Part shown: positions 39,512-51,467 of the stretch, one piece after another
Numbering within the stretch: position 1 is the stretch's first letter
How the letters are laid out: each line of letters starts with the position of its first letter
IMG/VR virus record: IMGVR_UViG_3300032295_000393
Coordinates: 1-51,779 of that record
Reading direction: 5' to 3' (one strand)
DNA length: 51,779 bases
Source: a virus
Taxonomy: Duplodnaviria; Caudoviricetes
Notes under the pieces: model-generated
Databases searched by the model: none
What the model saw: the letters and a program-made list of their open reading frames with translations, nothing else
What the model was told of the DNA's origin: nothing
Translations under genes and position numbers: made by a program

Positions 39512-40235
39512 CTGTGGCTCCAATGCTTTCTGAAAGTTGCTTTTTGATTTCTGCAAATGCTTTTTGCAGTCCTTTGAACAGACTGGGTTCTTCGTCCTTG
39601 ATCTGATCGATTCGCCCTTGGTTTTGTTTCCACAGCTTGGCGAGGTCTGTGAGTGTTGTGCTTGCCTGAGCAAGCTCAATCAAACCCTCAACAAAGAGTT
39701 TTGATTCGGTGTGACCAACAATTGGCTTCTTACTGGGAACTGGCTGGATTACCTCGCCTGTCGGCTGACCCTGTGGTGAGCCTGTCACGCTCTCAAGCGC
39801 ATCATGCTCAACGATAGCCATCGCCGTGACATACAGGTATCTCCGCTGGTAGGTTTCAACAGCACCGAGGTTCTGAATGGGGTGACATCCTTTCAACTGA
39901 GCGTCAGCCATAGGCGATGTAAACGTCACGCACGATCCATCGATCACATCGTAGATGGTCATGGTTGCCATGTCGGGCGTGAAGCTGATGACATCAACCA
40001 AGCCCCACTTGTTGAAAGCCACTTGGATCGCTGGCAAAAAGTCCCCAAGCTCAAAGTAGCTGTAGCCAGCAAACTTGTTGTGACCCGACTTCTTGATCGG
40101 CATTGTTTGAAACTCTGCACGAGCGGCGATGAGTCGGGCAAGCACCCCACGCTTACCACTCATGCCCATCAACACCAACTGGTCTGAATGACTCACGCTT
40201 GGATCAAACGCCATCGCTTCATTTTCATTCGTCAT
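39504..40235 (-). CDS. erf: ERF-family ssDNA annealing protein
   Basis: KSGHNKFAGYSYFEL...QNLGAVETYQRRY...EHD. Confidence 0.85.
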   Translation of the reverse strand: MTNENEAMAFDPSVSHSDQLVLMGMSGKRGVLARLIAARAEFQTMPIKKSGHNKFAGYSYFELGDFLPAIQVAFNKWGLVDVISFTPDMATMTIYDVIDGSCVTFTSPMADAQLKGCHPIQNLGAVETYQRRYLYVTAMAIVEHDALESVTGSPQGQPTGEVIQPVPSKKPIVGHTESKLFVEGLIELAQASTTLTDLAKLWKQNQGRIDQIKDEEPSLFKGLQKAFAEIKKQLSESIGATDV

Positions 40236-41118
40236 TTTGTTGCTCCTTCAAATAGGATTGATACTGTGAACACCACTTGCTGACACCGCAATAATCTTGC
40301 GTACAGCGCACAGGTTCGGCTTTGCGGATTTCTATGAACCCTTTGTCCTTTGCTGGAATCGTTGCCAGCAAGTCGTTTGCTTCGTTCATCGTGTCAAAAA
40401 CACGAACAGCAGTCTTGCGTCCTTCTTTCTTGACTGCAAATTTGGGGTCACGCATCCAGCGATCCTCGTCAGTGCATGGGGGCAACTCATCACCCCAGTC
40501 TGCGCTGACCTTTGAATCACGGTGCATCTCGACACGCCTTTCGATAAAGCTCTCTGTGAAGCTCTTGTCCCAAATCGGAATGTCAACCACTTGAATGGGC
40601 GCTTGTGGGTATGTGTCTTTCCTGTCAGCCTCACGCCGTGACCAATCACGAACGATGGCAATGATCTTCAAGCCCTTGACCTTCTTGCCCTTGGCTTTCT
40701 CCACGATGTAGCCGTAGATGTTTTGTTGCTCTGCCCACTCAGGCTTCTCGTTCATCAGCGCCCACGCAGAGGTGAACTTGTAGTCCATGATGATGATGCC
40801 GTCCTCGTCAATCTGCTGGACATCGACTGCACCTGACAAGCGAACGCCATTCACATCAATGGTGAGTCGCTCTTCGTTCGTATAGTTGTCGATGACCGAA
40901 CGCTCCATGACAACGTGCAGAGCGGAGCCAACGATTGACCACCACATATCGGTGACATCCGTTTCCATTTCGTCATCATGTTTTTTGCGTAGCCGCTGAA
41001 TGCGGGGCGGTGAAATTATTTCGGTGACTGAGTAGTCAGCCGCACCCTTGCTGTAATACTGTTTGTTCGCAAGAGCGTATAGTGGTTCGGGTAAACCAAA
41101 CTTGTTCGTCACTTTCAT
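40225..41118 (-). CDS. PD-(D/E)xK exonuclease (RecB/Cas4-like)
   Basis: GSALH...LSGAVD...DYKFT...QQNIY; C-terminal Cys cluster (C...RC..YC.VS.WC). Confidence 0.85.
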   Translation of the reverse strand: MKVTNKFGLPEPLYALANKQYYSKGAADYSVTEIISPPRIQRLRKKHDDEMETDVTDMWWSIVGSALHVVMERSVIDNYTNEERLTIDVNGVRLSGAVDVQQIDEDGIIIMDYKFTSAWALMNEKPEWAEQQNIYGYIVEKAKGKKVKGLKIIAIVRDWSRREADRKDTYPQAPIQVVDIPIWDKSFTESFIERRVEMHRDSKVSADWGDELPPCTDEDRWMRDPKFAVKKEGRKTAVRVFDTMNEANDLLATIPAKDKGFIEIRKAEPVRCTQDYCGVSKWCSQYQSYLKEQQNDE

Positions 41119-41151
41119 GGAGCCTCCTTGATTGATAAAATGCGAACGCTT

Positions 41152-41180
41152 ATGCTAACACGAGAAAATTAACCATGCAA
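41152..41180 (-). promoter_or_regulatory. Sigma70-like promoter of the recombination operon
   Basis: Minus strand TTGCAT-17 bp-TAGCAT with extended -10 TG. The -35 overlaps the rusA start codon. It has the same -10 as the 50370 promoter. Confidence 0.6.
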
Positions 41181-41543
41181 ACACTTTCGTTAAAAATTTT
41201 TGGTGAGCCAGCAAGTAAAGCCAACAGTCGCAGGGCGGTGATGGTCAACGGCAAATCAATGTTCATCAAATCCGCAAAGGCGTTGGGCTATGCCAAGATG
41301 TTTAAACAACAAGCTGTTGTGCCGCCTTTGTTGAAATTTCTTTCGGAGGATGTCGCTGTTGTGATTCGCATTTGGTATGCATCAAGGCGACCTGATTTGG
41401 ATGAGTCGCTGATCCTCGACCTGTTGCAGGATGTTGCTTACCTCAACGATAGACAAGTCAAAGAGAAGCACATCTACTGGATGGGTGTAGACAAAGAGAA
41501 CCCTCGTTGCGAGATTGAGGTCAGCCCCATACAGACAAAATAA
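41175..41543 (+). CDS. rusA: RusA-like Holliday junction resolvase
   Basis: GEPASKANSRR, RRPDLD, D..Q...Y.NDRQV and NPRCEI. Confidence 0.8.
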   Translation: MQTLSLKIFGEPASKANSRRAVMVNGKSMFIKSAKALGYAKMFKQQAVVPPLLKFLSEDVAVVIRIWYASRRPDLDESLILDLLQDVAYLNDRQVKEKHIYWMGVDKENPRCEIEVSPIQTK

Positions 41544-41614
41544 AAGCCACCTCAAGGGTGGCTTCTACCGATCTTTCGATCTGCTATACAGGAGGCTTAA
41601 TCATGTCTAGGTGC
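41537..41614 (-). ncRNA. Candidate small RNA B (about 75 nt) with anti-RBS loop UGAUUAAGCCUCC
   Basis: Own promoter (41619-41646) and own terminator (AAGCCACC/GGTGGCTT plus TTTTATTTT on the minus strand). The loop is complementary to GGAGGCTT RBSs elsewhere in the genome. Confidence 0.7.
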
Positions 41615-41618
41615 GTGA

Positions 41619-41646
41619 ATTGTAGCCCCGCTATCACTCGTGTCAA
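41619..41646 (-). promoter_or_regulatory. Near-consensus sigma70 promoter for sRNA B
   Basis: Minus strand TTGACA-16 bp-TACAAT. Confidence 0.75.
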
Positions 41647-41681
41647 CACTCGTTCGCAAAATATTTTGGGATAATGCGATT

Positions 41682-41758
41682 GCAGTTGCCGTTTGTTTTT
41701 TCAATGCTTTCTGAACGGCAATCTTTGAGAGATGTTTAAACGCATCTCTCTTTTTTTT
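41682..41758 (+). ncRNA. Candidate small RNA A (about 77 nt)
   Basis: Extended -10 TGgGATAAT (41667-41675). Stem GTTGCCGTT/AACGGCAAT with a 20-nt U-rich loop, then terminator GAGAGATG/CATCTCTC plus T8. Confidence 0.65.
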
Positions 41759-41885
41759 GTCTGGAGTTTCTGGCGTTTGCCGGGAAAACTGCTCCGGGGT
41801 TGATTTGCAATTGTTTAAACAGCGCACAAAAATATTTTGCGCTTACCCCATTGTGTCGCCCCTGTTTCGTGGATTAAGATTCACT

Positions 41886-42096
41886 CCTCTTTTGATCGTT
41901 GGGAGAAATCGACAGCAGGGTCAAGAGGTTTATTGTCGGTACTGTTGGAAGTGCATTAGATACCGAAGGGGGTGGCGAAGACAGAGCCCCTTGCACGAGA
42001 AGTCTGTCGGGGCGCATCATGCGTGAAGGCTCATCTAGGATAGGCTAGGTGCGCCTTGCGCTCCCCCAAGGGGGGCGCAAAGAGTTGATATCAACT
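41886..42096 (+). other. Highly structured non-coding segment upstream of HNH/primase (ncRNA leader or replication origin)
   Basis: Promoter-like TTGTGT-18-TAAGAT at 41851-41880, at least five hairpins, a possible pseudoknot and the 14-bp palindrome AGTTGATATCAACT. Confidence 0.5.
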
Positions 42097-42118
42097 ACAT
42101 ACAAATTGGAAATCTCAT

Positions 42119-42394
42119 ATGCCTTATGTGAACAAAGCAAGACCTTACAAAAAAGAATATGAGCAACAGCTTGGGCGTAGTGAACAACCAAAGCGCAATG
42201 CGAGAGAACGTGCAAGGTATGAGATGGACAAGAATGGTGTTGACCGCAAGGGTAAAGACATCGACCATGTAGTGCCACTATCCAAGGGAGGAACCAACGC
42301 ACCATCAAACTTGAAATTAAAAACACCATCAAAGAATCGATCATTCACACGCAACAGTGACCACACTGTCAAAGTGAACAGACCGAAAAAGTAA
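42119..42394 (+). CDS. Small HNH endonuclease
   Basis: GKDIDHVVPLSKGGTNAPSNL...NRS. Confidence 0.8.
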   Translation: MPYVNKARPYKKEYEQQLGRSEQPKRNARERARYEMDKNGVDRKGKDIDHVVPLSKGGTNAPSNLKLKTPSKNRSFTRNSDHTVKVNRPKK

Positions 42395-42409
42395 ATCATC
42401 AGGAGGCTT

Positions 42410-44131
42410 ATGAAATTTGCAGGATCATCTGCAATGAGTGGCATCGACCATCTCGTTGCGTCAATTGCGGCACACAAACCCGAACGTGCCGTCTGTCCCG
42501 AATGCTCTGACGAGCGTTCAAAAAAAGGCGATAAAGATTTAGCCATTCACCCGAAAGAGCGTGGATGGACTTACCACTGCCATCACTGCCACATCGGCGG
42601 TTTCGTCTTCTTCCCATCAAATCAAATTCAACCGCCCAAGCGTCAGGAGCAAAACGTGATTCCACTCAGAGCCTTTCAACAAACACAACTTGAACCACAG
42701 CACTTTGCATTTTTGAAAGCACGAGGGATATCAGAACAGACCGCCCTTGACATGAAGTTGTTTGCCGCAAATAAATATTTCAATCGAATCCAAAAACAAA
42801 CTGATGCAATCGGTTTTCCTTATTTCAAAAATGGTCAGTACATCAATGCGAAGTATCGAAGTATTGAATCGAAGGACTTTACGCAAGACACAGGAGGCGC
42901 TCATGTATTCTTTGCAATTGACAAGGTTGATCCAACCAAGCCGATGATCATCGTGGAGGGCGAAATAGATGCACTGACATTGATTGAATGCGGCATTGAG
43001 AATGTTGTCAGCGTCCCTGCTGGCGCTCCCATCAAAGTCAGCGATGGCAAGGTTGCACCAAGCGAGGATAAAAAATTCAGTTTTATTTGGGATGCATTTG
43101 AAACAATTGAAAAGCTCCCCTACGTTGTCATTGCAGTTGATACCGACACTGCTGGTCAAGCCCTTGCAGAAGAGTTGGCAAGACGCATAGGCAAAGACAA
43201 ATGCCGCATCGCCAAATCAGAGTTCAAAGATTTAAACGAGGCTTTCCTTGCAGAAGGGGCGACCAAGGTTAAAGAAATTATTGATGCCGCAGAGCCGTAC
43301 CCAGTTGCTGGCTTGTCGTCCGCCACAAAATTTGAAGACCGTTTAAACGATCTGTGGAGCAAAGGCACGGGCAAGGGTGTATCGACCGGCTACTCAAACG
43401 TGGATCAGATTTACACCGTGGCTGAAGGTCAACTCACCATCGTGACAGGCTACCCATCCAGCGGCAAATCAAATTTCGTTGATCAACTTATGGTCAACCT
43501 CGGGCGATCCAATGATTGGAAGTTCGCCCTTTGTTCATTTGAGAACGCACCCGAAGTTCACATCTCCCGCCTGATGGAGATTTACAAAGAGAAGCGATTC
43601 TTTGAAGGCACAAATCGGATGACAGACGATGACCGCAAAGATGCCTTTGATTGGGTGCAACAGCATTTTTTATTCTTGGACTCAGAGGGCGTTGAACCAG
43701 CGTCAATTGATTCGATATTGGATCGGGCAAGGATTGCAGTTGTTCGCATGGGCATACGAGGGCTGGTGGTTGACCCCTACAACTACATTGAAAATAAATC
43801 AGGCATGGCAGAGACAGAGTTCATATCGTCCATGCTGACCCGCATACAAGCGTTCGCAAAGGCTTATGGAGTCCATGTGTGGTTCGTGGCTCACCCAGCC
43901 AAAATAACTCGCTCAGGCATGGATTTACCTCGTCCTGACGGCATGGCTATCAGTGGATCAATGGCGTGGTGGGCAAAGGCTGATTGCGGCATGACCGTGC
44001 ATAGAACCAAGACCAACGATGTTGAGATTGCGATTTGGAAATGTAGGTATCGGTGGGTTGGAACGCAAGGCGAAACCCAGTTGAATTATGAAAAGGTCAC
44101 CGGAACGTACAAAGTGGCTGATGACTTCTAA
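42410..44131 (+). CDS. Primase-helicase (T7 gp4/Twinkle-like)
   Basis: Zn finger CPEC...CHHC, TOPRIM EGEIDAL and DTD, Walker A GYPSSGKS, VVDPYN, VAHP and ISGS. Confidence 0.92.
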   Translation: MKFAGSSAMSGIDHLVASIAAHKPERAVCPECSDERSKKGDKDLAIHPKERGWTYHCHHCHIGGFVFFPSNQIQPPKRQEQNVIPLRAFQQTQLEPQHFAFLKARGISEQTALDMKLFAANKYFNRIQKQTDAIGFPYFKNGQYINAKYRSIESKDFTQDTGGAHVFFAIDKVDPTKPMIIVEGEIDALTLIECGIENVVSVPAGAPIKVSDGKVAPSEDKKFSFIWDAFETIEKLPYVVIAVDTDTAGQALAEELARRIGKDKCRIAKSEFKDLNEAFLAEGATKVKEIIDAAEPYPVAGLSSATKFEDRLNDLWSKGTGKGVSTGYSNVDQIYTVAEGQLTIVTGYPSSGKSNFVDQLMVNLGRSNDWKFALCSFENAPEVHISRLMEIYKEKRFFEGTNRMTDDDRKDAFDWVQQHFLFLDSEGVEPASIDSILDRARIAVVRMGIRGLVVDPYNYIENKSGMAETEFISSMLTRIQAFAKAYGVHVWFVAHPAKITRSGMDLPRPDGMAISGSMAWWAKADCGMTVHRTKTNDVEIAIWKCRYRWVGTQGETQLNYEKVTGTYKVADDF

Positions 44132-44160
44132 AGCGTTTAAACGCTGAGTGTTTTCAGGGC

Positions 44161-44199
44161 AAAAAAAATCCCCCCGAAGCCGTGGAGCTAAGGGGGGAA
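44161..44199 (-). terminator. Intrinsic terminator of the early operon
   Basis: Minus strand TCCCCCC...GGGGGA hairpin followed by T8; converges on the primase gene end. Confidence 0.75.
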
Positions 44200-44210
44200 C
44201 TGGTCAGAAT

Positions 44211-44456
44211 TTAGTGAATGGGTGAATCCTCGTCAGGCATCTCGCTTGCGTACTTCACGGTGATGCTGGTGACAACAGCTTTCAAAATGTTCGTGAGGTC
44301 TACGCCCGACTCGAATGCGGTATCCGCAAGCAGGGACGCAAGCATAGGCAAGATGACCTTTATCTCGTGACCCTCAAGAACATCGCAGACTTTGTCTCTG
44401 AGTTCTATGTAGGTGTCGAAGTGCTTTTCAATTTCTTCTTGGGTTAATTCACTCAT
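44211..44456 (-). CDS. Hypothetical acidic protein
   Basis: AAGGA RBS; clean ORF. Confidence 0.65.
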   Translation of the reverse strand: MSELTQEEIEKHFDTYIELRDKVCDVLEGHEIKVILPMLASLLADTAFESGVDLTNILKAVVTSITVKYASEMPDEDSPIH

Positions 44457-44471
44457 GATGTTTTCCTTTGT

Positions 44472-44666
44472 TTAGTTTTGCTTGTTGAAGTAATCGCCTA
44501 GTGGACGGCTAAATTTTTGTGGGTTGCGACCCATCTGCATACCAAGACCGAAGACGGCATCCTCTCTATTTTTTGCGGTGAATCCAAGACCCAGCCTGCC
44601 GATCTCATCACGATATTCTGCCCTCCACATTTTCAGTGTCTGTATGTATTCGACTTTGATTCCCAT
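44472..44666 (-). CDS. Hypothetical protein
   Basis: AAGGAAAG RBS. Confidence 0.65.
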   Translation of the reverse strand: MGIKVEYIQTLKMWRAEYRDEIGRLGLGFTAKNREDAVFGLGMQMGRNPQKFSRPLGDYFNKQN

Positions 44667-44709
44667 GATGCTTTCCTTTTTAAAAGATGGGGAGCAGGCT
44701 CCCCTTGGT

Positions 44710-45516
44710 TTACTTCAATACTTTCAGAACCTTGTTGAGCGATGCGCTGGTGAGGTCTTGAATGTTGGTCACGTTCTCTGCGTGTGTAAAGCACTCGGCA
44801 ACCTCGGTGTGTCCAATGCCAATTGCAATCAACGTGATGCCTTGCTTGTCAGCAAGCTTTTGCAGGTACTGCATATGCGGCTGGTTGTAGCCATTCGCAT
44901 CAGTCAGCAAGAACAAAACTTTGCGTGGCTCTTTGCGTATAGCCAAGTCCTCAATTGCAAGAGCGATGGACGAGTAGTCAGGCGTGGAGCCCTGAGCGCA
45001 TTGAGCGATAGCGCCAAGCTTTGCAGATGCCTTGCCCAGTGATTCACCCCACTTCTTGAATGGGATGAAGATAGGCTTCTCGACTCGCACTGCTATGTCT
45101 CGTGATGCACCTGTTGCATTCTGCACCTGTGCATCATCGCCGCCGTAAAAACCTGTCACCGAAAACTCAGCGTTGGCCTTGTCGAATATCTTGCATAGCT
45201 GAACAGCAACCTGACCAGCAAGGGCGATCTCGCCGCCATAGGTCATTGAGCCCGAGCAGTCGATCATGATGCTGACCGCTGACCGCTCTGCCTCACGCAC
45301 CTGACGCTTGCTGAAGATGTTTGCATCACCACAGGCGTAGCGTGTAAACGCTTTGCGATCAACCCTGCCCGACTCCTCGTGTGTAGACCAGCTAACCAAA
45401 TCATTCGAGCGCAAGATGCGAAGCAAGTTGGCTCGTGTTGCACCCATGCCTGATGGCGTGAGCGTGTAGTTGTTTTTGTATGTCTTCTCTGCTCTGTCTT
45501 TGTCAACGTGTCTCAT
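44710..45516 (-). CDS. vWA (MIDAS) domain protein, CobT C-terminal-like
   Basis: SGRVD, IMIDCSGSM (DxSxS), GSTP, LLTDA and IAIGIG. Confidence 0.85.
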   Translation of the reverse strand: MRHVDKDRAEKTYKNNYTLTPSGMGATRANLLRILRSNDLVSWSTHEESGRVDRKAFTRYACGDANIFSKRQVREAERSAVSIMIDCSGSMTYGGEIALAGQVAVQLCKIFDKANAEFSVTGFYGGDDAQVQNATGASRDIAVRVEKPIFIPFKKWGESLGKASAKLGAIAQCAQGSTPDYSSIALAIEDLAIRKEPRKVLFLLTDANGYNQPHMQYLQKLADKQGITLIAIGIGHTEVAECFTHAENVTNIQDLTSASLNKVLKVLK

Positions 45517-45525
45517 GTTTACCCC

Positions 45526-46647
45526 TTAATAAAAAGCTATCTCTTCAACCTTTGGTCTTGCAACAGCAGGACGATGACCCTTGGCATCGACCTTTGACTT
45601 GTGCTGACCAAGCTCGTTCTGAATGAACTTGTCAAACTCAGGACGGCGGCGCTTGTCGGTGAATGGATCGTTGCTGTACCCATTGCCGCCCTTGTCGCTT
45701 GGCTTGCCTGACTCACCGGCTTGATCACCCTGTTCACCCTCGCCATCACCCTGCTCAGGCTTGTCAGAACCGTCACCAGCGCCCTGATCTGCGCCGTCTG
45801 ACCCCTTACCCTCACCGTCAGCTTTATCGCCTTGCTGATCGCCTTGGTCACCAGCCTGATCACCCTGCTGGTCGCCGCCCTGATCCCCTGCTTGGTCGCC
45901 CTGCTGGTCATCACCTTGCTCGCCTTGCTGACCGTCATCACCCTGCTGACCGCCGTCATCTTGCGGCTCTTGCGGAGGTTGCTTCTTCTGCTCCTCGTGG
46001 GCTTGCTGAAGACGTTTAAACAACTCGACTGCAATGTCTGCAATGGTGGTTGTGTTCTTTGCTTTCTGTGCGCTGGTCAATGCCCACTCAATGTCGGCTG
46101 ACCAAGGCGACACGCCAAGCACTGTCGGGTGACTGATGGGGTAACCGTTCAAGCGCCGCCCCTCAATGGCGAGCATGAATGGCACGTTCTTCAGATCGTC
46201 AGGCTTGACGTAACCGTTCTTGTCCAGCACTGCATTGGTCAACTCTTCAAACAATGCCTTGCTGTTGGGCGCATAGCCTGAGTGAATGACGCACTGCTCA
46301 ATGCGTGGGTCTTCAAGACCGTTGATCAATGAGCCAACGTATGAGCCATGCTTCTCACGAGCGTTGTCCCAAGGTGCGTTGTCGGTGAACCATGCATGAC
46401 CAAGCTCGTGCAAGGCGTAGCCAACGGTGTTGTTGAATACCTTGCGAGAGATGGTTGCCATGTCATCGATGGATGGGAAGATCAACTTCACGCTTTGCAA
46501 TGTCTTTGCACTGGAGCGTCTGAAGATGATCCCCGCTGTCTTGCCTGACCACAGAATGTCGAGCTTGTCGATCTTCTGTCCGCTTGCTTGGAAGACACGC
46601 TCAAGCGTTGATGCAACGCCTCGTTTAACGTCTGTACCTAAAAACAT
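45526..46647 (-). CDS. CobT N-terminal-like protein with HExxH motif and Q/G/D-rich tail
   Basis: GYALHELGHAWFT...NGLEDPRIE; low-complexity acidic linker. Confidence 0.75.
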   Translation of the reverse strand: MFLGTDVKRGVASTLERVFQASGQKIDKLDILWSGKTAGIIFRRSSAKTLQSVKLIFPSIDDMATISRKVFNNTVGYALHELGHAWFTDNAPWDNAREKHGSYVGSLINGLEDPRIEQCVIHSGYAPNSKALFEELTNAVLDKNGYVKPDDLKNVPFMLAIEGRRLNGYPISHPTVLGVSPWSADIEWALTSAQKAKNTTTIADIAVELFKRLQQAHEEQKKQPPQEPQDDGGQQGDDGQQGEQGDDQQGDQAGDQGGDQQGDQAGDQGDQQGDKADGEGKGSDGADQGAGDGSDKPEQGDGEGEQGDQAGESGKPSDKGGNGYSNDPFTDKRRRPEFDKFIQNELGQHKSKVDAKGHRPAVARPKVEEIAFY

Positions 46648-46656
46648 AAAGCCCCC

Positions 46657-48162
46657 TTACTTGGCTAAGAATTTTTTGAATTCCACGGTGTCAACCGTGG
46701 CGGTGAAGATGCCTACCAACTCAGCCTCGCAGTCAGCGGGAAACTTGTTGACGATGGCAGAGCGAAACGCTGTCACCGTTGGGATGCCCTTGGTCACTGC
46801 TCTTGCCCACGCAAACAACTGTCGCAATGATGGAGGCTGAGTCAGTACACCAGCCCTTGCTTTCTCACGAGCCACGTTGGCGAAGCGCACGAGAACGTCA
46901 GCGGCATCGATGTTTAAACCTGTCCGCTTGTTGATGAGTGCAACCTCGTCATCATGTGGCAGGTACTCGAACTCCAGCGTGTAGCTGAAGCGATCAATGA
47001 ACGCACTGTTCTGATCACGAACACCAGCGAAGTTGCCGGACTGGTCACCGTGACCGTTGCTGTTGTCAGCGCAGAAGAATGCAACGTGCGATGCAACAGG
47101 GATGCGAGTGCCTGTCTCGGCGATCACGATGGCACGGTTGGCAGAGCGTTCGCACAAGGCGTGGAGAGCGGCGAGGTTCTGCGCTCTTGCGAATCCGATC
47201 TCGTCCAACAGCACGAGCGAACCAGTGTGCTGGATGGCTTGGGCAATGATCCCTGCTTTCCATTCGACTGAACCGTTCTTGACGATGTTGCCGCCGATGA
47301 ATTCGCTACGCTCCATCGCCTCATCAAAGTTGATGCGGAACAGTTTGCGCTTGAGCCTTGCGCTCAGTTGTTCGCAGAATGCAGTCTTGCCTGTACCACG
47401 CTCACCAGCAAGCCACACGTTGTCGGGCAGTGCATCGCTCAATGCACACAAAGCTTGGTGCAGGTTGGCGGGGTTGAAGACGTAGTCATCGACAACAGCG
47501 CAAGCCTCTGCATCATTCCAAACCAGCACCTCCAAGTCCTCGAAGTTGACAACCTCGCCGTCCTGCTCGTACCACAGGGGAGCGGGGAACACCTCCGATG
47601 CCTTGCGTGTCTCGAACACTGCCACGCTGTTGGCAATGACCTGTAGTTGGTCAGGTGTGACCGTCTTCTTCAGAGCCTTGAACAGGTTGCCCACTTCAGA
47701 GTGGATGGCGTTGTCGATCTTGCCGTAGTCCACGCCTGTGATCTTGCTGACCTCAGTGTCGAGACGTTTAAACAGGTCACGCTCAATGCTGTCAGCTTTC
47801 GAGATGACTGCACCTCTCAGTTGGCGAACCTCGTCCAGCGCCTTTGATGCAAGCGTGTTGGTTGACGAGACGATGGCTTGCGTGTTGCGAACCTCGGTGA
47901 TTGCATCGTTGACCAATGCGACTGAAGAGTCAGCCACTGGTGTAGTGGACTGCTTGGCGTTGATCACTGCTGTTGACAGTGGCACGAGGTCACGAATCTC
48001 GCCAATGCTGATGCCGCCCCTGTTGACGATGTCGGTCAGGATGCTGACCACACGCACCTTGTCGGCGCTGACCTCGGAGCCGTAGCCGGTCTGCACGAGA
48101 GCGGCGTTGAGTTTGCCTGTCTGAATGAGTGACAGAGCCTGAGAAATTTTTGCTGTTGACAT
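46657..48162 (-). CDS. MoxR/CobS-like AAA+ ATPase
   Basis: Walker A GERGTGKT, Walker B LLDEI, ADNSNG and NSAFIDRF, sensor SLRQ. Confidence 0.9.
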   Translation of the reverse strand: MSTAKISQALSLIQTGKLNAALVQTGYGSEVSADKVRVVSILTDIVNRGGISIGEIRDLVPLSTAVINAKQSTTPVADSSVALVNDAITEVRNTQAIVSSTNTLASKALDEVRQLRGAVISKADSIERDLFKRLDTEVSKITGVDYGKIDNAIHSEVGNLFKALKKTVTPDQLQVIANSVAVFETRKASEVFPAPLWYEQDGEVVNFEDLEVLVWNDAEACAVVDDYVFNPANLHQALCALSDALPDNVWLAGERGTGKTAFCEQLSARLKRKLFRINFDEAMERSEFIGGNIVKNGSVEWKAGIIAQAIQHTGSLVLLDEIGFARAQNLAALHALCERSANRAIVIAETGTRIPVASHVAFFCADNSNGHGDQSGNFAGVRDQNSAFIDRFSYTLEFEYLPHDDEVALINKRTGLNIDAADVLVRFANVAREKARAGVLTQPPSLRQLFAWARAVTKGIPTVTAFRSAIVNKFPADCEAELVGIFTATVDTVEFKKFLAK

Positions 48163-48180
48163 GATAGGAAGCCTCCTGAT

Positions 48181-48771
48181 TTAAACGAGTTGAAATTGAG
48201 TGACGTTGTCACTGTCTGACTTGCCATGCGAACACCAAGGCAAGCCTGTTGATGACCACTTGGAGGTGAGTCGAACCTTGTAGCCGCACGTTGGACACTG
48301 AGCCAACAACATACGAGTTGATTGCACCTTGCGAACAGCAGAGATGTTCAGCTTGGCGTGTGGGTAGTCGCCCAGTGATTGAATCAATGGAGCGAAGTTG
48401 TCTCTGAATGCATCACCAGCGACAGTTGCAGTGACCTTGCCTTCAAGCCACAAGGCACGAACGCAAGGCACGAAACGTCCACGGTGACCATCGCCATCAG
48501 TCGCCGCATGGGACAACTCGTGGCAGAGAATTGCGAACGCTTCAACAGCGTCATCAACCACAGGGCTGATGCAGATTTCATGGTGACCATCGCTTGATGC
48601 GGCTGGTGACCAATGCTCACCGATGGCACGGTGTTGCGAGCGAGCCTTGCTCGATGGGAAACCACAGGTCACCCTGATCTTGTCAGGCAGGGGGAAGCCG
48701 TTGGCATTGAAGATGGAGCGAAGCTCCTCGACAGCGTGGGCAAGCCACTCTTCACGGTTGGTAGCAGTCAT
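48181..48771 (-). CDS. SprT-like zinc metalloprotease with C-terminal zinc ribbon
   Basis: REEWL...LCHELSHAA...GH...F; CPTCGY...PWC. Confidence 0.75.
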   Translation of the reverse strand: MTATNREEWLAHAVEELRSIFNANGFPLPDKIRVTCGFPSSKARSQHRAIGEHWSPAASSDGHHEICISPVVDDAVEAFAILCHELSHAATDGDGHRGRFVPCVRALWLEGKVTATVAGDAFRDNFAPLIQSLGDYPHAKLNISAVRKVQSTRMLLAQCPTCGYKVRLTSKWSSTGLPWCSHGKSDSDNVTQFQLV

Positions 48772-48773
48772 GT

Positions 48774-48929
48774 TTAAACCTCCTTGTGATTGAGAGCCTC
48801 AGTCACAACGTGACCAAGGAAGAAACCGCCTGCGGCGATAACGAAATTCCACAGCGGTATGCCATCGCTGTAGCTGAAGCCGATAAAAAGAAAAGCCGCT
48901 GATGCGAGCGAGACGAGAACGTAATACAT
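48774..48929 (-). CDS. Small two-TM protein
   Basis: GGAGGCTT RBS, start MYYVL; hydrophobic. Confidence 0.65.
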   Translation of the reverse strand: MYYVLVSLASAAFLFIGFSYSDGIPLWNFVIAAGGFFLGHVVTEALNHKEV

Positions 48930-48990
48930 GGATAAGCCTCCATAAGTTGAACAAGACCGCCTCACGGCGGTTTCGGCTAATCAAGCCTCA

Positions 48991-49236
48991 TCAGTTGTCC
49001 TGTGCGTTTGCGATCTGTTCATCAGTCAAGCCTGCGAACACTGGTAGCTCCCGAATGGGCTTGGTGCGGTCTTCAAGGCCACGCTCTGTATAGGGGTTGG
49101 ACAAGGCGGCAAGTTGTTCGCATCGGCATCCGAACCCATCGATAGCGGGGCAGTCAGGATGGTGCGACTCTTCTGTCATCACGATGGTGTCGCCCCCTTG
49201 GATCGTGTTGATGGTGACGTTGGTGAATGTGTTCAT
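48991..49236 (-). CDS. Hypothetical protein (HxxxC...CxC)
   Basis: GAGAGG RBS; HHPDCPAIDGFGCRC. Confidence 0.6.
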   Translation of the reverse strand: MNTFTNVTINTIQGGDTIVMTEESHHPDCPAIDGFGCRCEQLAALSNPYTERGLEDRTKPIRELPVFAGLTDEQIANAQDN

Positions 49237-49238
49237 GT

Positions 49239-49376
49239 TTAAACCTCTCTATGTGTACCGTTGATGATGGTTTGTGCGTAGGCAATGCAAGCCAACGCAA
49301 TGTCTTTGTCGCCCTGTGCGAGCGCCTTGTACGCCTCTGCAAGCGCCTCTGTCAGTAGCTCTAAATCCTGTTTCAT
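49239..49376 (-). CDS. Small helical hypothetical protein
   Basis: AAGGA RBS, start MKQDL. Confidence 0.6.
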   Translation of the reverse strand: MKQDLELLTEALAEAYKALAQGDKDIALACIAYAQTIINGTHREV

Positions 49377-49386
49377 GCGTGTCCTT

Positions 49387-49728
49387 TCAGATGCCAAGGG
49401 GAAGCTCGTTGTTCGCAAGCTTGTACTTGATCGACTCACCAGCATCAACGCCGATGGCAATCAAACGATTCTGAGCAAGCTCAAACGCCTTGCTCATGGT
49501 GTATGCAACCTCAATGTCGGTTACATCAGCGTTCGTGCCGCCACTTGACCAGTGCAGGGTCACTTTCGGCAATGCACCGAAGCTGTAGCGTTCGATGACG
49601 TAGCAAATGCCCTCTGAGCCCCAATGCGTGGGAGCAGAAAAGGTGTAGAAGATTTCACCGAGCGGTTTGCCGCCGTTATTGCGAACGGTGTTGTTGATTG
49701 TTTCTGTCACGTTGAATTTGCGGAACAT
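49387..49728 (-). CDS. Hypothetical early protein
   Basis: GGAGGCTTAACC-ATG, start MFRKF. Confidence 0.65.
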   Translation of the reverse strand: MFRKFNVTETINNTVRNNGGKPLGEIFYTFSAPTHWGSEGICYVIERYSFGALPKVTLHWSSGGTNADVTDIEVAYTMSKAFELAQNRLIAIGVDAGESIKYKLANNELPLGI

Positions 49729-49791
49729 GGTTAAGCCTCCATTGAAGTGCGACATTGCACTGATATGCCCATCGGGCATACCGCTGAAATG

Positions 49792-49995
49792 TCAGCCTCT
49801 GATTTGGTAAACATCAGAGCCGGAAGAGGTGACGCATTCACCTATTTCGAGCATCCACTCGAATGTGTTACGCACGAATGCGTTTTTGATCTCGTCAAGC
49901 GAGTTGTACTCAGTCACAGAGCTATCTGTGCGAGTGGCTGAAGTGTTCGCACTATTGCGAACCCAATCACCAGTGTGGTGATGAACGAATTGCAT
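49792..49995 (-). CDS. Hypothetical early protein (first gene of operon)
   Basis: GGAGGCTCA-ATG, start MQFVHH. Confidence 0.6.
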   Translation of the reverse strand: MQFVHHHTGDWVRNSANTSATRTDSSVTEYNSLDEIKNAFVRNTFEWMLEIGECVTSSGSDVYQIRG

Positions 49996-50363
49996 TGAGC
50001 CTCCAGTTGTTTGATGCGGATTGCATCCACAAGCACACTGCGAACAATGCACTTGAAGTGGAATCCACTTGCCGCCCTTATTCACGAGGGCGTGGCATGG
50101 GGACAGTGCCTTGCGTCCGCTCCTCTCAGAGCGGTCAGATCGTTCGCTGTTGCCCCCAATGTGTGTAGGTGGTGGGCATGGTGAGAACGGTCAACGTAGG
50201 TGACTGTCGTAGTCATCAGGGCTGTTGCTCTCTGTCTGTCCCCTGTGTGTGTAGGTGGGTGACACGTTGAGAGCCTGTACCTGACGGGCTTTCTGCTCGG
50301 GCTAGAGTGTTTGCGAGTCACTCATCGAAGCCGTCTTTGTCGTTTGATGCAAGCACCAAACTG
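49996..50363 (-). ncRNA. Long structured 5' leader of early operon with duplicated stem-loop domain
   Basis: Two hairpins present the identical 13-mer CCACCTACACACA; further stems; no convincing ORF. Confidence 0.5.
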
Positions 50364-50369
50364 AAGCGA

Positions 50370-50397
50370 ATGCTAGCACGTTTACACACTTCTGCAA
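50370..50397 (-). promoter_or_regulatory. Sigma70-like early promoter
   Basis: Minus strand TTGCAG-16 bp-TAGCAT with extended -10 TG; GTGTAAAC in the spacer. Confidence 0.55.
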
Positions 50398-50440
50398 CAG
50401 GTTGCGAACAAAAAAACCACGTTTTCTGCAAATCGTTATA

Positions 50441-50453
50441 AATCAATGGGTTA
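50441..50453 (+). promoter_or_regulatory. IHF consensus site
   Basis: AATCAATGGGTTA matches WATCAANNNNTTR, with an A-tract upstream; about 45 bp from the early promoter -35. Confidence 0.5.
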
Positions 50454-50840
50454 CGAGCGTTTCGACCCGCTCCAGCCTACCAAAATGAACTTTGGTATTA
50501 ATTGTGGGGCTGACGGCAATGAATACTTGAGTTTTCAATGCGAACGATTGGGGCGAGGGACAAGGCGAAGCCGAATGGACTGATGCTTGATAGGCAGTGA
50601 CTGCTGTAGGGAAGAGAGGCGATGAGGTGAAGAGCATGAGCTTGTGGTGAGCTTGTGCTGAGGAGTGTTTAAACGCAAACCGTTGGCTTGCTGGTGATCA
50701 CCATCTTACTGGTGTACGCCGAGCTTGCAGTTGTGAGGTGCATCGATGCGTTATGCGAACGAGTTGCGTTGTGTGTGTCGTGCTGAGAAAATGATGAGAA
50801 CAATTGCAGAGTGTTTAAACCAAGCGAAAGGGATCACAAC

Positions 50841-51467
50841 ATGGCACAAAACAAAACCAATGAGAACGATATCGGTGTAAGCACTGCACCGTTCGCAGAT
50901 GCAATCATTGACGGCGAGGGAGACTACAGCGAAGCGATACGGTCAGCCGCTCTCCAAGTAGAGATAACACAGAGAGGAGATGGAAAGCCATTCGGTCATA
51001 AACCCAACGAAGATGAAATCGTTGAGAGTAAGAAGACCACTACCAAGATGAAATTGTTCGCCTCTGCCATTGCCGATGGCCTGAGTCCAGCAGAGGCTTA
51101 CCGTAAGGTGTATGACTGCTCCAACAGCACCAATGCAACAGTGATGGCTAATGCGAACAGACTGTTGAATGATGGAAGAATTACTTTACTACTTGAACCA
51201 GTCTTCCAAGCTAAACGAGAGATGGTCATCAATGACGAGTTGGCTACGAGGCGATTCATCATGCAGGAACTCTTTGAACACGCCAAGAACACTGAGCGAG
51301 TGAGTGACAAGCTGAGAGCTTTGGAGATGATGGGCAAGAGCATTGGTATGTTCAATGACACTGCTGACAAAGATGAGAACGATCTTGATGTAGAGAAGCT
51401 CAAGAATGAACTCAAGGCGAAGATGGCATCGATGCTCAACGTCACACTGCCATCAGCCAAGCACTAG
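50841..51467 (+). CDS. terS: Terminase small subunit
   Basis: KMKLFA...AEAYRKVY...ANRLLND..I HTH; KLRALEMMGKSIGMF. Confidence 0.75.
   Translation: MAQNKTNENDIGVSTAPFADAIIDGEGDYSEAIRSAALQVEITQRGDGKPFGHKPNEDEIVESKKTTTKMKLFASAIADGLSPAEAYRKVYDCSNSTNATVMANANRLLNDGRITLLLEPVFQAKREMVINDELATRRFIMQELFEHAKNTERVSDKLRALEMMGKSIGMFNDTADKDENDLDVEKLKNELKAKMASMLNVTLPSAKH

Follow-up and report, generated by a model that had tools for sequence, protein, structure and literature searches.

The antisense RNAs CopA and ctRNA of plasmids are cis-encoded, fully complementary to a single target and control copy number, and Cuckoo/CcsR, RsaE and RNAIII are bacterial trans-acting small RNAs (sRNAs) with loops directed against the Shine-Dalgarno (SD) sequence. 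Variants of the phage RNA C4 make P1 and P7 heteroimmune. As parts of PMC8198154 set out, C4 is an antisense small RNA encoded by these phages in their immunity region and needed for full repression of ant. Excerpts of a review (PMC12197685) describe P22 sar, lambda OOP and aQ as short phage RNAs that block the translation or the stability of phage mRNAs, with sar interfering with translation initiation. On the side of the target, the start-associated sequence (SAS) of cluster K mycobacteriophages is a conserved motif that reaches past the canonical ribosome-binding site (RBS) at 13-19 gene starts; the relevant portion of PMC11373665 presumes it to be a regulator of translation and states its role as unknown. 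Here we describe a conserved three-hairpin sRNA gene found in related uncultured phages. Its loop complements extended RBSs of early and replication genes and varies in concert with them, and the RNA probably represses their translation in trans.

The window, that is the whole stretch of DNA analysed, is a 51.8-kb virus record that is 84% complete. Its virion genes occupy the plus strand from 1 to 33.4 kb. A leftward recombination operon encodes an exonuclease and ERF, with rusA, an HNH gene and a primase-helicase gene beside it, and a leftward early operon encodes a MoxR/CobS-type AAA ATPase with its VWA partner; a small terminase is also present. The annotated phage collection holds no DNA match to the window, the closest isolates are distant (32% for primase and 46% for RusA), and the MinM2 locus gave no match to the covariance model described below. 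No integrase or repressor family matched among the window ORFs scanned, and to that extent the absence of both remarked on by an earlier, sequence-only reading of this DNA stands. Its relatives differ as regards the integrase: a tyrosine recombinase is encoded in 4 of 20 related records (3 of 7 near-complete ones), and an HTH_3 repressor in 0 of the same 20. These recombinase genes, in G002, G003, G006 and G012 (loci L222-L224), are in the leftward operon and are missing from other relatives, complete ones included; in the three genomes examined for position, the gene sits inside that operon without an sRNA target site.

The sequence-only reading had also proposed that a minus-strand promoter drives a short RNA ending in an intrinsic terminator, and had drawn a fold for it; on rechecking, all of its sequence claims held. 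The promoter, TTGACA-16-TACAAT (41646-41619, minus strand), agrees with the σ70 consensus at 11 of 12 positions and is the top of 8 sites between 38 and 51.8 kb, and the terminator (41569-41539, minus strand) has the longest stem among the 20 found. Folding of the 41612-41537 transcript reproduces the earlier drawing, with P1 around the loop UUAAGCC, the GAUC-GAAA-GAUC hairpin and the terminator. When a slightly longer stretch is folded P1 folds differently, and the stability is greater than that of 200 out of 200 shuffles (z -3.3). The ACAUG of the guide forms an anti-start-codon extension. Judged by its sequence signals, the element is non-coding and has its own promoter and intrinsic terminator, and its conserved secondary structure exposes a seed, both of which are expected of a trans-acting base-pairing sRNA. 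A 245-nt metatranscriptome contig from a close relative covers 41501-41711, shows neither strand nor ends and may be DNA; it comes from a single RNA run (word share 0.06) kept as contigs that possibly hold DNA, and it gives no indication of habitat.

Table 1. Coordinates of the sRNA gene, its parts and neighbour, and its target sites in the window.
Feature	Position	Strand	Remark
-35 hexamer TTGACA, sRNA promoter	41641..41646	-	promoter scan
-10 hexamer TACAAT	41619..41624	-	24-31 nt from loop motif in 58/66 homologues
Small RNA gene, about 76 nt	41537..41612	-	putative start about 7 nt past the -10
P1, weak covarying stem that presents the guide loop	41584..41610	-	6/6 pairs with two-sided changes
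Guide ACAUGAUUAAGCCUCCUG	41589..41606	-	exposed seed UUAAGCC at 41594-41600
P2, small hairpin GAUC-GAAA-GAUC	41570..41581	-	GACC...GGUC in most relatives
P3, intrinsic terminator with U-run	41537..41569	-	convergent with rusA end
rusA-like resolvase gene	41175..41543	+	PHROG 140; constant sRNA neighbour, non-target
Target site, primase-helicase start (gene 42410-44131)	42400..42412	+	11-nt match
Target site, MoxR/CobS-type AAA ATPase start (gene 46657-48162)	48158..48178	-	best window duplex, -25.2 kcal/mol
Target site, PD-(D/E)XK exonuclease start (gene 40225-41118)	41116..41128	-	8-nt match at 41128
Target site, 113-aa early gene	49725..49740	-	15/16 nt
Target site, 51-aa early gene	48926..48941	-	14/16 nt
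Target site, 196-aa gene (phrog_6361)	48768..48783	-	13/16 nt with G-U wobble; in 12/41 relatives only
Probable target site, 81-aa early gene	49234..49248	-	-19.4 kcal/mol
Probable target site, 373-aa gene (GGGGGCTTT, G-U wobble)	46645..46656	-	in 15/45 relatives
Weaker target site, 67-aa early gene (GGAGGCTCA)	49993..50004	-	GGAGGCT match and duplex energy

The element recurs in related phages. Viral contigs contain 372 relatives of rusA, of which the best 80 were taken. A covariance model built from the window and 37 of these loci finds a full-length match in 69 of the 80 (the 37 training sequences among them), every one on the minus strand after rusA. In the other loci it is cut by a contig end (1), displaced (1) or present as a divergent variant spotted by eye (2), and it is missing from 7, of which 3 have a similar layout with a different loop. 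The model-fitted alignment, whose 60 distinct rows include 11 weak or partial matches, has two-sided changes in 17 of 19 pairs and 91.5% of cells paired, against 30-51% in slid controls; P2 is paired in about 99% of cells, with two-sided changes in 4 of its 4 pairs. The raw, unfitted alignment gives 14 of 19 pairs and 84%, and from it RNAalifold recovered the terminator only. P1 is weak, with a mean of -2 kcal/mol, but real: in 29 of 39 lineages its native arms outdo swapped ones, a result that 0 of 20,000 permutations equalled.

An Rfam scan, one of the checks named in the sequence-only reading, places the element in no family. Nothing in Rfam 15, C4 and Cuckoo-type RNAs included, matches it at the gathering threshold, and the best matches by E-value involve the terminator only, at 20-21 bits versus thresholds of 43 and 70. 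We found no published description of the RNA in a literature search that left aside the alignments of the Fremin 2023 catalogue, and none of five sequence motifs occurs in the searched supplements of PMC10690425. The RNA may already be listed in that paper as an anonymous candidate; six of its candidates are placed upstream of RusA genes, and one of these, DNAVirus_124, is from gut Firmicutes phages.

Bacterial and archaeal genomes yielded 15 rusA relatives, of which 2 carry the RNA (L206, L207); both are short contigs in metagenome bins, so they supply neither an integrated prophage nor a firm host. Narrow, context-free pattern scans of viral contigs found the element confined to this phage group, with 2 new carriers among 46 loci tested and 0 among 16 further new loci. 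In L045 (6592-7630) a reversed, HNH nuclease-like gene with its own terminator has been inserted, leaving a gap of about 1 kb between rusA and the sRNA, and loop and targets agree despite the insertion. More distant loci (L051, L078, L156-L205) have, directly after rusA, a minus-strand terminator followed by the SD-like motifs GGAGAGAG, GGAGGGAGATC and GAAGCAACTGC and a promoter-like site, and possibly represent a broader superfamily whose guides differ.

The minus strand is not the one preferred by folding energy, so the strand call rests on the promoter, the U-tail and the G-U pairs of P2 and P3. A minus-strand promoter scoring at least 9/12 is found in 61 of 66 distinct homologues and a plus-strand one in 5, and the variation in P2 and P3 yields many G-U pairs when read as minus strand. 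In 40 of 61 homologues the element as a whole folds more stably as plus strand, and P1 alone is strand-neutral (11 G-U versus 20 A-C). The same comparison bears on whether the RNA might instead be a cis-antisense to a plus-strand gene for a 23-aa peptide, in the style of a type I toxin-antitoxin, which the sequence-only reading had offered as its own alternative. In the window and the relatives nearest to it, the loop does face an RBS and an ATG, but the ATG follows the motif in only 15 of the 66 homologues, the frames range from 2 to at least 50 codons with no peptide common beyond close kin, and a plus-strand promoter is as rare as just described. The ATG can be explained by the anti-start-codon part that the guide carries. 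With paired positions changing on both sides, it is the structure rather than the peptide that is conserved, and the cis-antisense reading is extremely unlikely; a type I antitoxin identity was rejected, no conserved small toxin ORF having been found opposite the RNA.

In the window, the 16-mer around the loop has 4 matches with at most 3 mismatches, itself included, where 0.36 are expected, and the 3 others are all gene starts. Complementarity to several distant starts had been listed by the sequence-only reading, and each of these matches was recovered: those at genes 49728 and 48929, with one and two mismatches, those of 11 nt at 42400 (primase-helicase), 10 nt at 48178 (AAA ATPase) and 8 nt at 41128 (exonuclease), and short ones at genes 49995 and 6879, which correspond to GGAGGCT at 49998 and 6869. 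GGAGGCT occurs 13 times in the window, against 5.8 expected. When 63 curated starts are ranked by duplex energy, the top 8 (48162, 48929, 49728, 48771, 42410, 49236, 46647 and 41118) all belong to early or replication genes, and three of them, 48771, 49236 and 46647, are targets absent from the earlier list. The window primase site follows the HNH stop codon, so coding constraint is no explanation there. In a genome-wide duplex scan, 5 of the six best windows are early or replication starts and the sixth is an internal primase site at 42890. This site (42881-42911, plus strand; ACAGGAGGCGCTCATG) pairs strongly with the guide, at -24.3 kcal/mol, and is possibly an internal start or a second binding site.

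The complementarity extends past the SD core, and it is this extension that marks the early genes. Counted over the window and seven near-complete relatives, with genes called by our own script, the cognate 6-nt extension marks 41 of 240 early starts and 2 of 287 late ones (p 4e-13); in a relative that lacks the RNA it is present at 0 of 60 starts. The base after GGAGG is C at 57 of 94 starts in RNA-bearing genomes and at 0 of 11 in the genome without the RNA. The 16S end of E. coli would favour U at this position, so the extension does not serve the ribosome. Complementarity is in these respects better than that of a generic anti-SD sequence, as the sequence-only reading had supposed. Loop positions 4-9 are on average 86-93% unpaired, and the part opposite GGA is half masked, the generic UCC being unpaired at 0.32-0.58; a TC able to mask the GGA-facing part, and also able to pair with targets, is present in 60 of 61 homologues. 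The exposed seed therefore addresses the GGCUUA extension and is not the generic anti-SD part. Binding would then start on the phage-specific extension, which may spare host messages.

These observations also bear on the reading in which the RNA is a generic anti-SD directed against host mRNAs, a host shut-off factor with incidental phage matches. The loop does contain CCUCC, as such an RNA would, but the phage sites follow the loop even beyond the SD core, they are limited to early genes and they disappear along with the RNA, and the generic UCC is the half-masked part. We regard host shut-off as highly improbable, while extra host targets besides the phage genes are possible.

Loop and targets also co-vary across lineages. 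The loop falls into classes that read, as target-sense DNA, GGAGGCTT, GGAGGCTA, GGAGGCTC, GGGGGCTT and GGAGGCCA. Orthologous starts were picked by a generic SD score, independently of the loop, in 81 loci with the RNA, many of which are near-identical. A primase start was called in 61 of these, of which 60 have a site and 59 match the loop class, with the L060 site in G-U wobble with its loop; the AAA ATPase site matches in 39 of 40 loci, and the exonuclease has a site in 69 of 79, with a full class match in 46. This is the covariation in relatives that the sequence-only reading had named as a test of its proposal. Starts outside the target set seldom have a site (rusA 0/80, VWA 1/46, ERF 1/21, HNH 3/71, a 134-aa gene 3/71), and in loci without the RNA even a loose site is rare, with 1 among 50 primase starts, 2 among 54 exonuclease starts and 0 among 6 ATPase starts. 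The primase site is missing in L038, L264, L273 and L274, and in phages of the GGGGG class a few accessory genes keep GGAGG sites.

A 72-row primase tree from a quick search implies at least 9 changes of loop class, 10 of the primase site and 7 of the ATPase site, and the CTA and CTC loop classes each occur in several separate clades. Among those listed, independent pairs agree throughout (4/4, 3/3, 2/2 and 1/1), each set being too small for p<0.05. Loop-uniform clades match in all 19 cases for the primase, in all 13 for the ATPase and in 13 of 22 for the exonuclease, where permutation gives about 6, 4 and 7, a comparison that overstates independence and in which unresolved forks inflate the clade counts. 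By energy, the cognate guide is the best one at 33 of 41 sites of the primase and at 17 of 29 of the ATPase, a shortfall partly due to the rare GCC-class guide, which binds strongly. An out-of-sample set of 80 metagenome loci, of which 40 match the model and 23 are unlike earlier ones (many falling in clades already seen), gave 16 called primase starts, with 13 matches, 3 without a site and 0 of the wrong class, and 4 of 4 matches at the ATPase. Two model-negative loci that have sites carry a divergent RNA copy of the matching class. Short complementarity to distant mRNAs is in this way kept by compensatory change, as expected of a trans-acting base-pairing sRNA. Gene conversion among the repeats was set aside, since 8-10 nt is short for it and it would leave the promoter, terminator and stems unexplained.

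Concerted change is also predicted if GGAGGCYHA is the binding site of a phage protein (a translational repressor, an RNase or a DNA-binding regulator) and the copy after rusA a plus-strand decoy or operator, because all copies would change together when the specificity of the protein changes. The plus strand folds at least as stably, P1 is strand-neutral, and read-through from rusA could display GGAGG in a loop. The promoter and U-tailed terminator indicate the minus strand in most homologues, however, and the G-U variation of P2 and P3 falls on that strand. At position 3, A-class loops tolerate G in their targets (5 cases, in the primase and the 373-aa gene), and all 19 core targets of G-class loops have G, which is what wobble pairing would lead one to expect, although this argument is weak because the G class is one clade. 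CsrA-type proteins need a GGA core, which the GGGGG class does without, and the HTH_3 protein is found in 0 of the 20 related records. Taken together, a protein site is unlikely.

The RNA could also pair with its sites and activate them or reposition ribosomes, acting as a mimic of the 16S rRNA 3' end for private phage messages. Its loop resembles the 16S 3' end, and primase sites often have a short gap between SD and start (3-5 nt in 31 of 45) and many have UUG or GUG starts. Pairing nevertheless covers the SD core and, in 20 of 45 distinct primase cases, enters the start codon, which points to occlusion rather than recruitment, and we know of no activating 16S-mimic mechanism of this kind; we consider activation very unlikely.

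Repression in trans remains the reading that brings together the promoter and terminator signals, the covarying structure, the complementarity, the loop/target covariation and the restriction of sites to early genes, all of which are observed. The central proposal of the sequence-only reading, one trans-acting RNA with a regulon defined by its RBSs, is well supported by the covariation, the conserved structure and the early-gene sites. The RNA is predicted to be transcribed from its own σ70 promoter by host RNA polymerase. Pairing would begin between its single-stranded seed, UUAAGCC, and the phage-specific GGCUUAA immediately 3' of the SD core, and the weak P1 stem would unzip upon seed pairing. 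The resulting duplex, with some 10 contiguous pairs, would mask the SD and in many cases the start codon as well, and would in this way keep the 30S subunit from binding. Contiguous complementarity has a mean length of 10.6 nt at the primase, 10.1 nt at the ATPase and 8.5 nt at the exonuclease. Since sRNAs that cover both SD and start codon are established repressors, this RNA is likely to repress initiation. The near-consensus host promoter suggests that synthesis is early and steady. Amounts of the RNA would then rise as time passes and genome copies multiply, and the RNA would cap the products of the primase-helicase gene, the exonuclease gene and the early AAA-ATPase operon. Its most likely role is early shut-off and replication control, with superinfection immunity if a carrier state exists.

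The surroundings of the gene hold further candidate elements. A second, divergent small-RNA candidate (41667-41758, plus strand) has an extended -10 (TGnGATAAT), a hairpin and a terminator that has a long T-run and whose loop contains GTTTAAAC. In 56 of 81 loci a plus-strand hairpin with a T-run occurs within 330 nt, frequently accompanied by GCAGTTGCC and by a CTCC/TCCTC stretch resembling the 16S rRNA end. Cognate targets of the second RNA showed no excess, with 37 matches of at least 8 nt against 37.9 in permutations. In L009 (10345-10470), a phage without the sRNA, a plus-strand RNA candidate contains GTAGTCCTC and the exonuclease start reads GGAGGACTA; possibly the exonuclease target has been handed over to the second RNA. 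A Betaproteobacteria-1 RNA (Rfam RF02932, 78 bits) lies at 41888-42012 on the plus strand, just upstream of the HNH and primase genes, so that the gap between rusA and HNH holds up to three RNAs.

Two repeats are also frequent. The palindrome GTTTAAAC has 39 copies spread along the window, where 0.8 are expected. Related loci have about 1 per kb and related genomes 25-47 each, a genome that lacks the sRNA among them. GTTCGCA/TGCGAAC has 26 copies (8 expected), 23 of them in the early region (window 41065-51158), among them one copy beside the promoters of the exonuclease and rusA (41147), one that separates the two sRNA promoters (41652) and one by a putative early promoter (50409); this early enrichment is inconsistent across genomes. 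AACGTT or GTTCG is found near the sRNA promoter in 46 of 67 relatives, and the GTTC-N7-GTTC box, which we take to be the alphaproteobacterial LexA-like box, in only 5 of 67 sRNA promoters.

Repeated switching among a few loop classes would fit selection to escape silencing by relatives. It is conceivable, though on balance doubtful, that the locus is an RNA-only repressor system, in which the sRNA takes the place of CI, the extended RBSs that of operators and the loop classes (five or more, arisen repeatedly) that of immunity groups; a switch may be completed by the divergent second sRNA together with an operator that lies between the two promoters and is shared by them. If this were true, then a resident or co-infecting phage would silence the replication of relatives with the same barcode, a switch of barcode would be the way to escape, and the same logic would explain orphan start-associated sequences elsewhere.

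As far as comparative sequence can tell, this is a real phage sRNA, uncatalogued in Rfam, with unusually clear comparative evidence for a multi-gene barcode regulon. The phage appears to tag chosen genes of its own with an RBS barcode and to carry the matching RNA. Pairing between an sRNA and its targets is usually settled at the bench, and here the regulon can be read from sequence, the compensatory changes recurring across lineages at several targets at once. The locus is a candidate protein-free shut-off or immunity system in a widespread group of uncultured phages, and its loop classes provide natural sets of partly orthogonal sRNA/RBS pairs.

Compared with P1 and P7 C4, the window RNA is likewise a phage-encoded small RNA with antisense control of phage genes, but C4, in the parts of PMC8198154 cited above, acts on its own c4-icd-ant operon and the window RNA matches 8-9 scattered starts, the primase among them. 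The analogy with C4 drawn by the sequence-only reading is apt as to function and fails as to family, given the different operon and the lack of an Rfam match. A C4-type immunity RNA was rejected on those grounds: there is no c4-icd-ant operon, the window ORFs scanned include no antirepressor (the neighbours of the sRNA are rusA and the HNH gene), and the targets are scattered. P22 sar, lambda OOP and aQ have one target each according to the excerpts of PMC12197685, whereas the window RNA lies kilobases from many targets and pairs over about 10 nt; more generally, the phage antisense RNAs in those excerpts hit one phage target or host genes. Bacterial anti-SD sRNAs such as NfeR1 also have a promoter, a hairpin with a C-rich loop, an intrinsic terminator and a predicted block of the RBS; unlike them, the window RNA has a single loop, has no Rfam match, and pairs with an SD-adjacent extension that co-varies with several targets in the same genome. 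The closest parallel on the target side is SAS, likewise a conserved motif extending past the RBS at many starts. The phages that carry it differ from the window group, and a cognate RNA, unmentioned for SAS in the portion of PMC11373665 drawn on here, is present and co-varying in the window group; for the mycobacteriophage sequences this offers a direct test, namely a search for a complementary small RNA. With CopA and ctRNA the window RNA would share the logic of a constitutive small RNA predicted to limit a replication protein by gene dosage, but those RNAs are cis-encoded, fully complementary and single-target, unlike this one. The class of mechanism is a known one, and its use as a barcode-defined regulon appears to be new.
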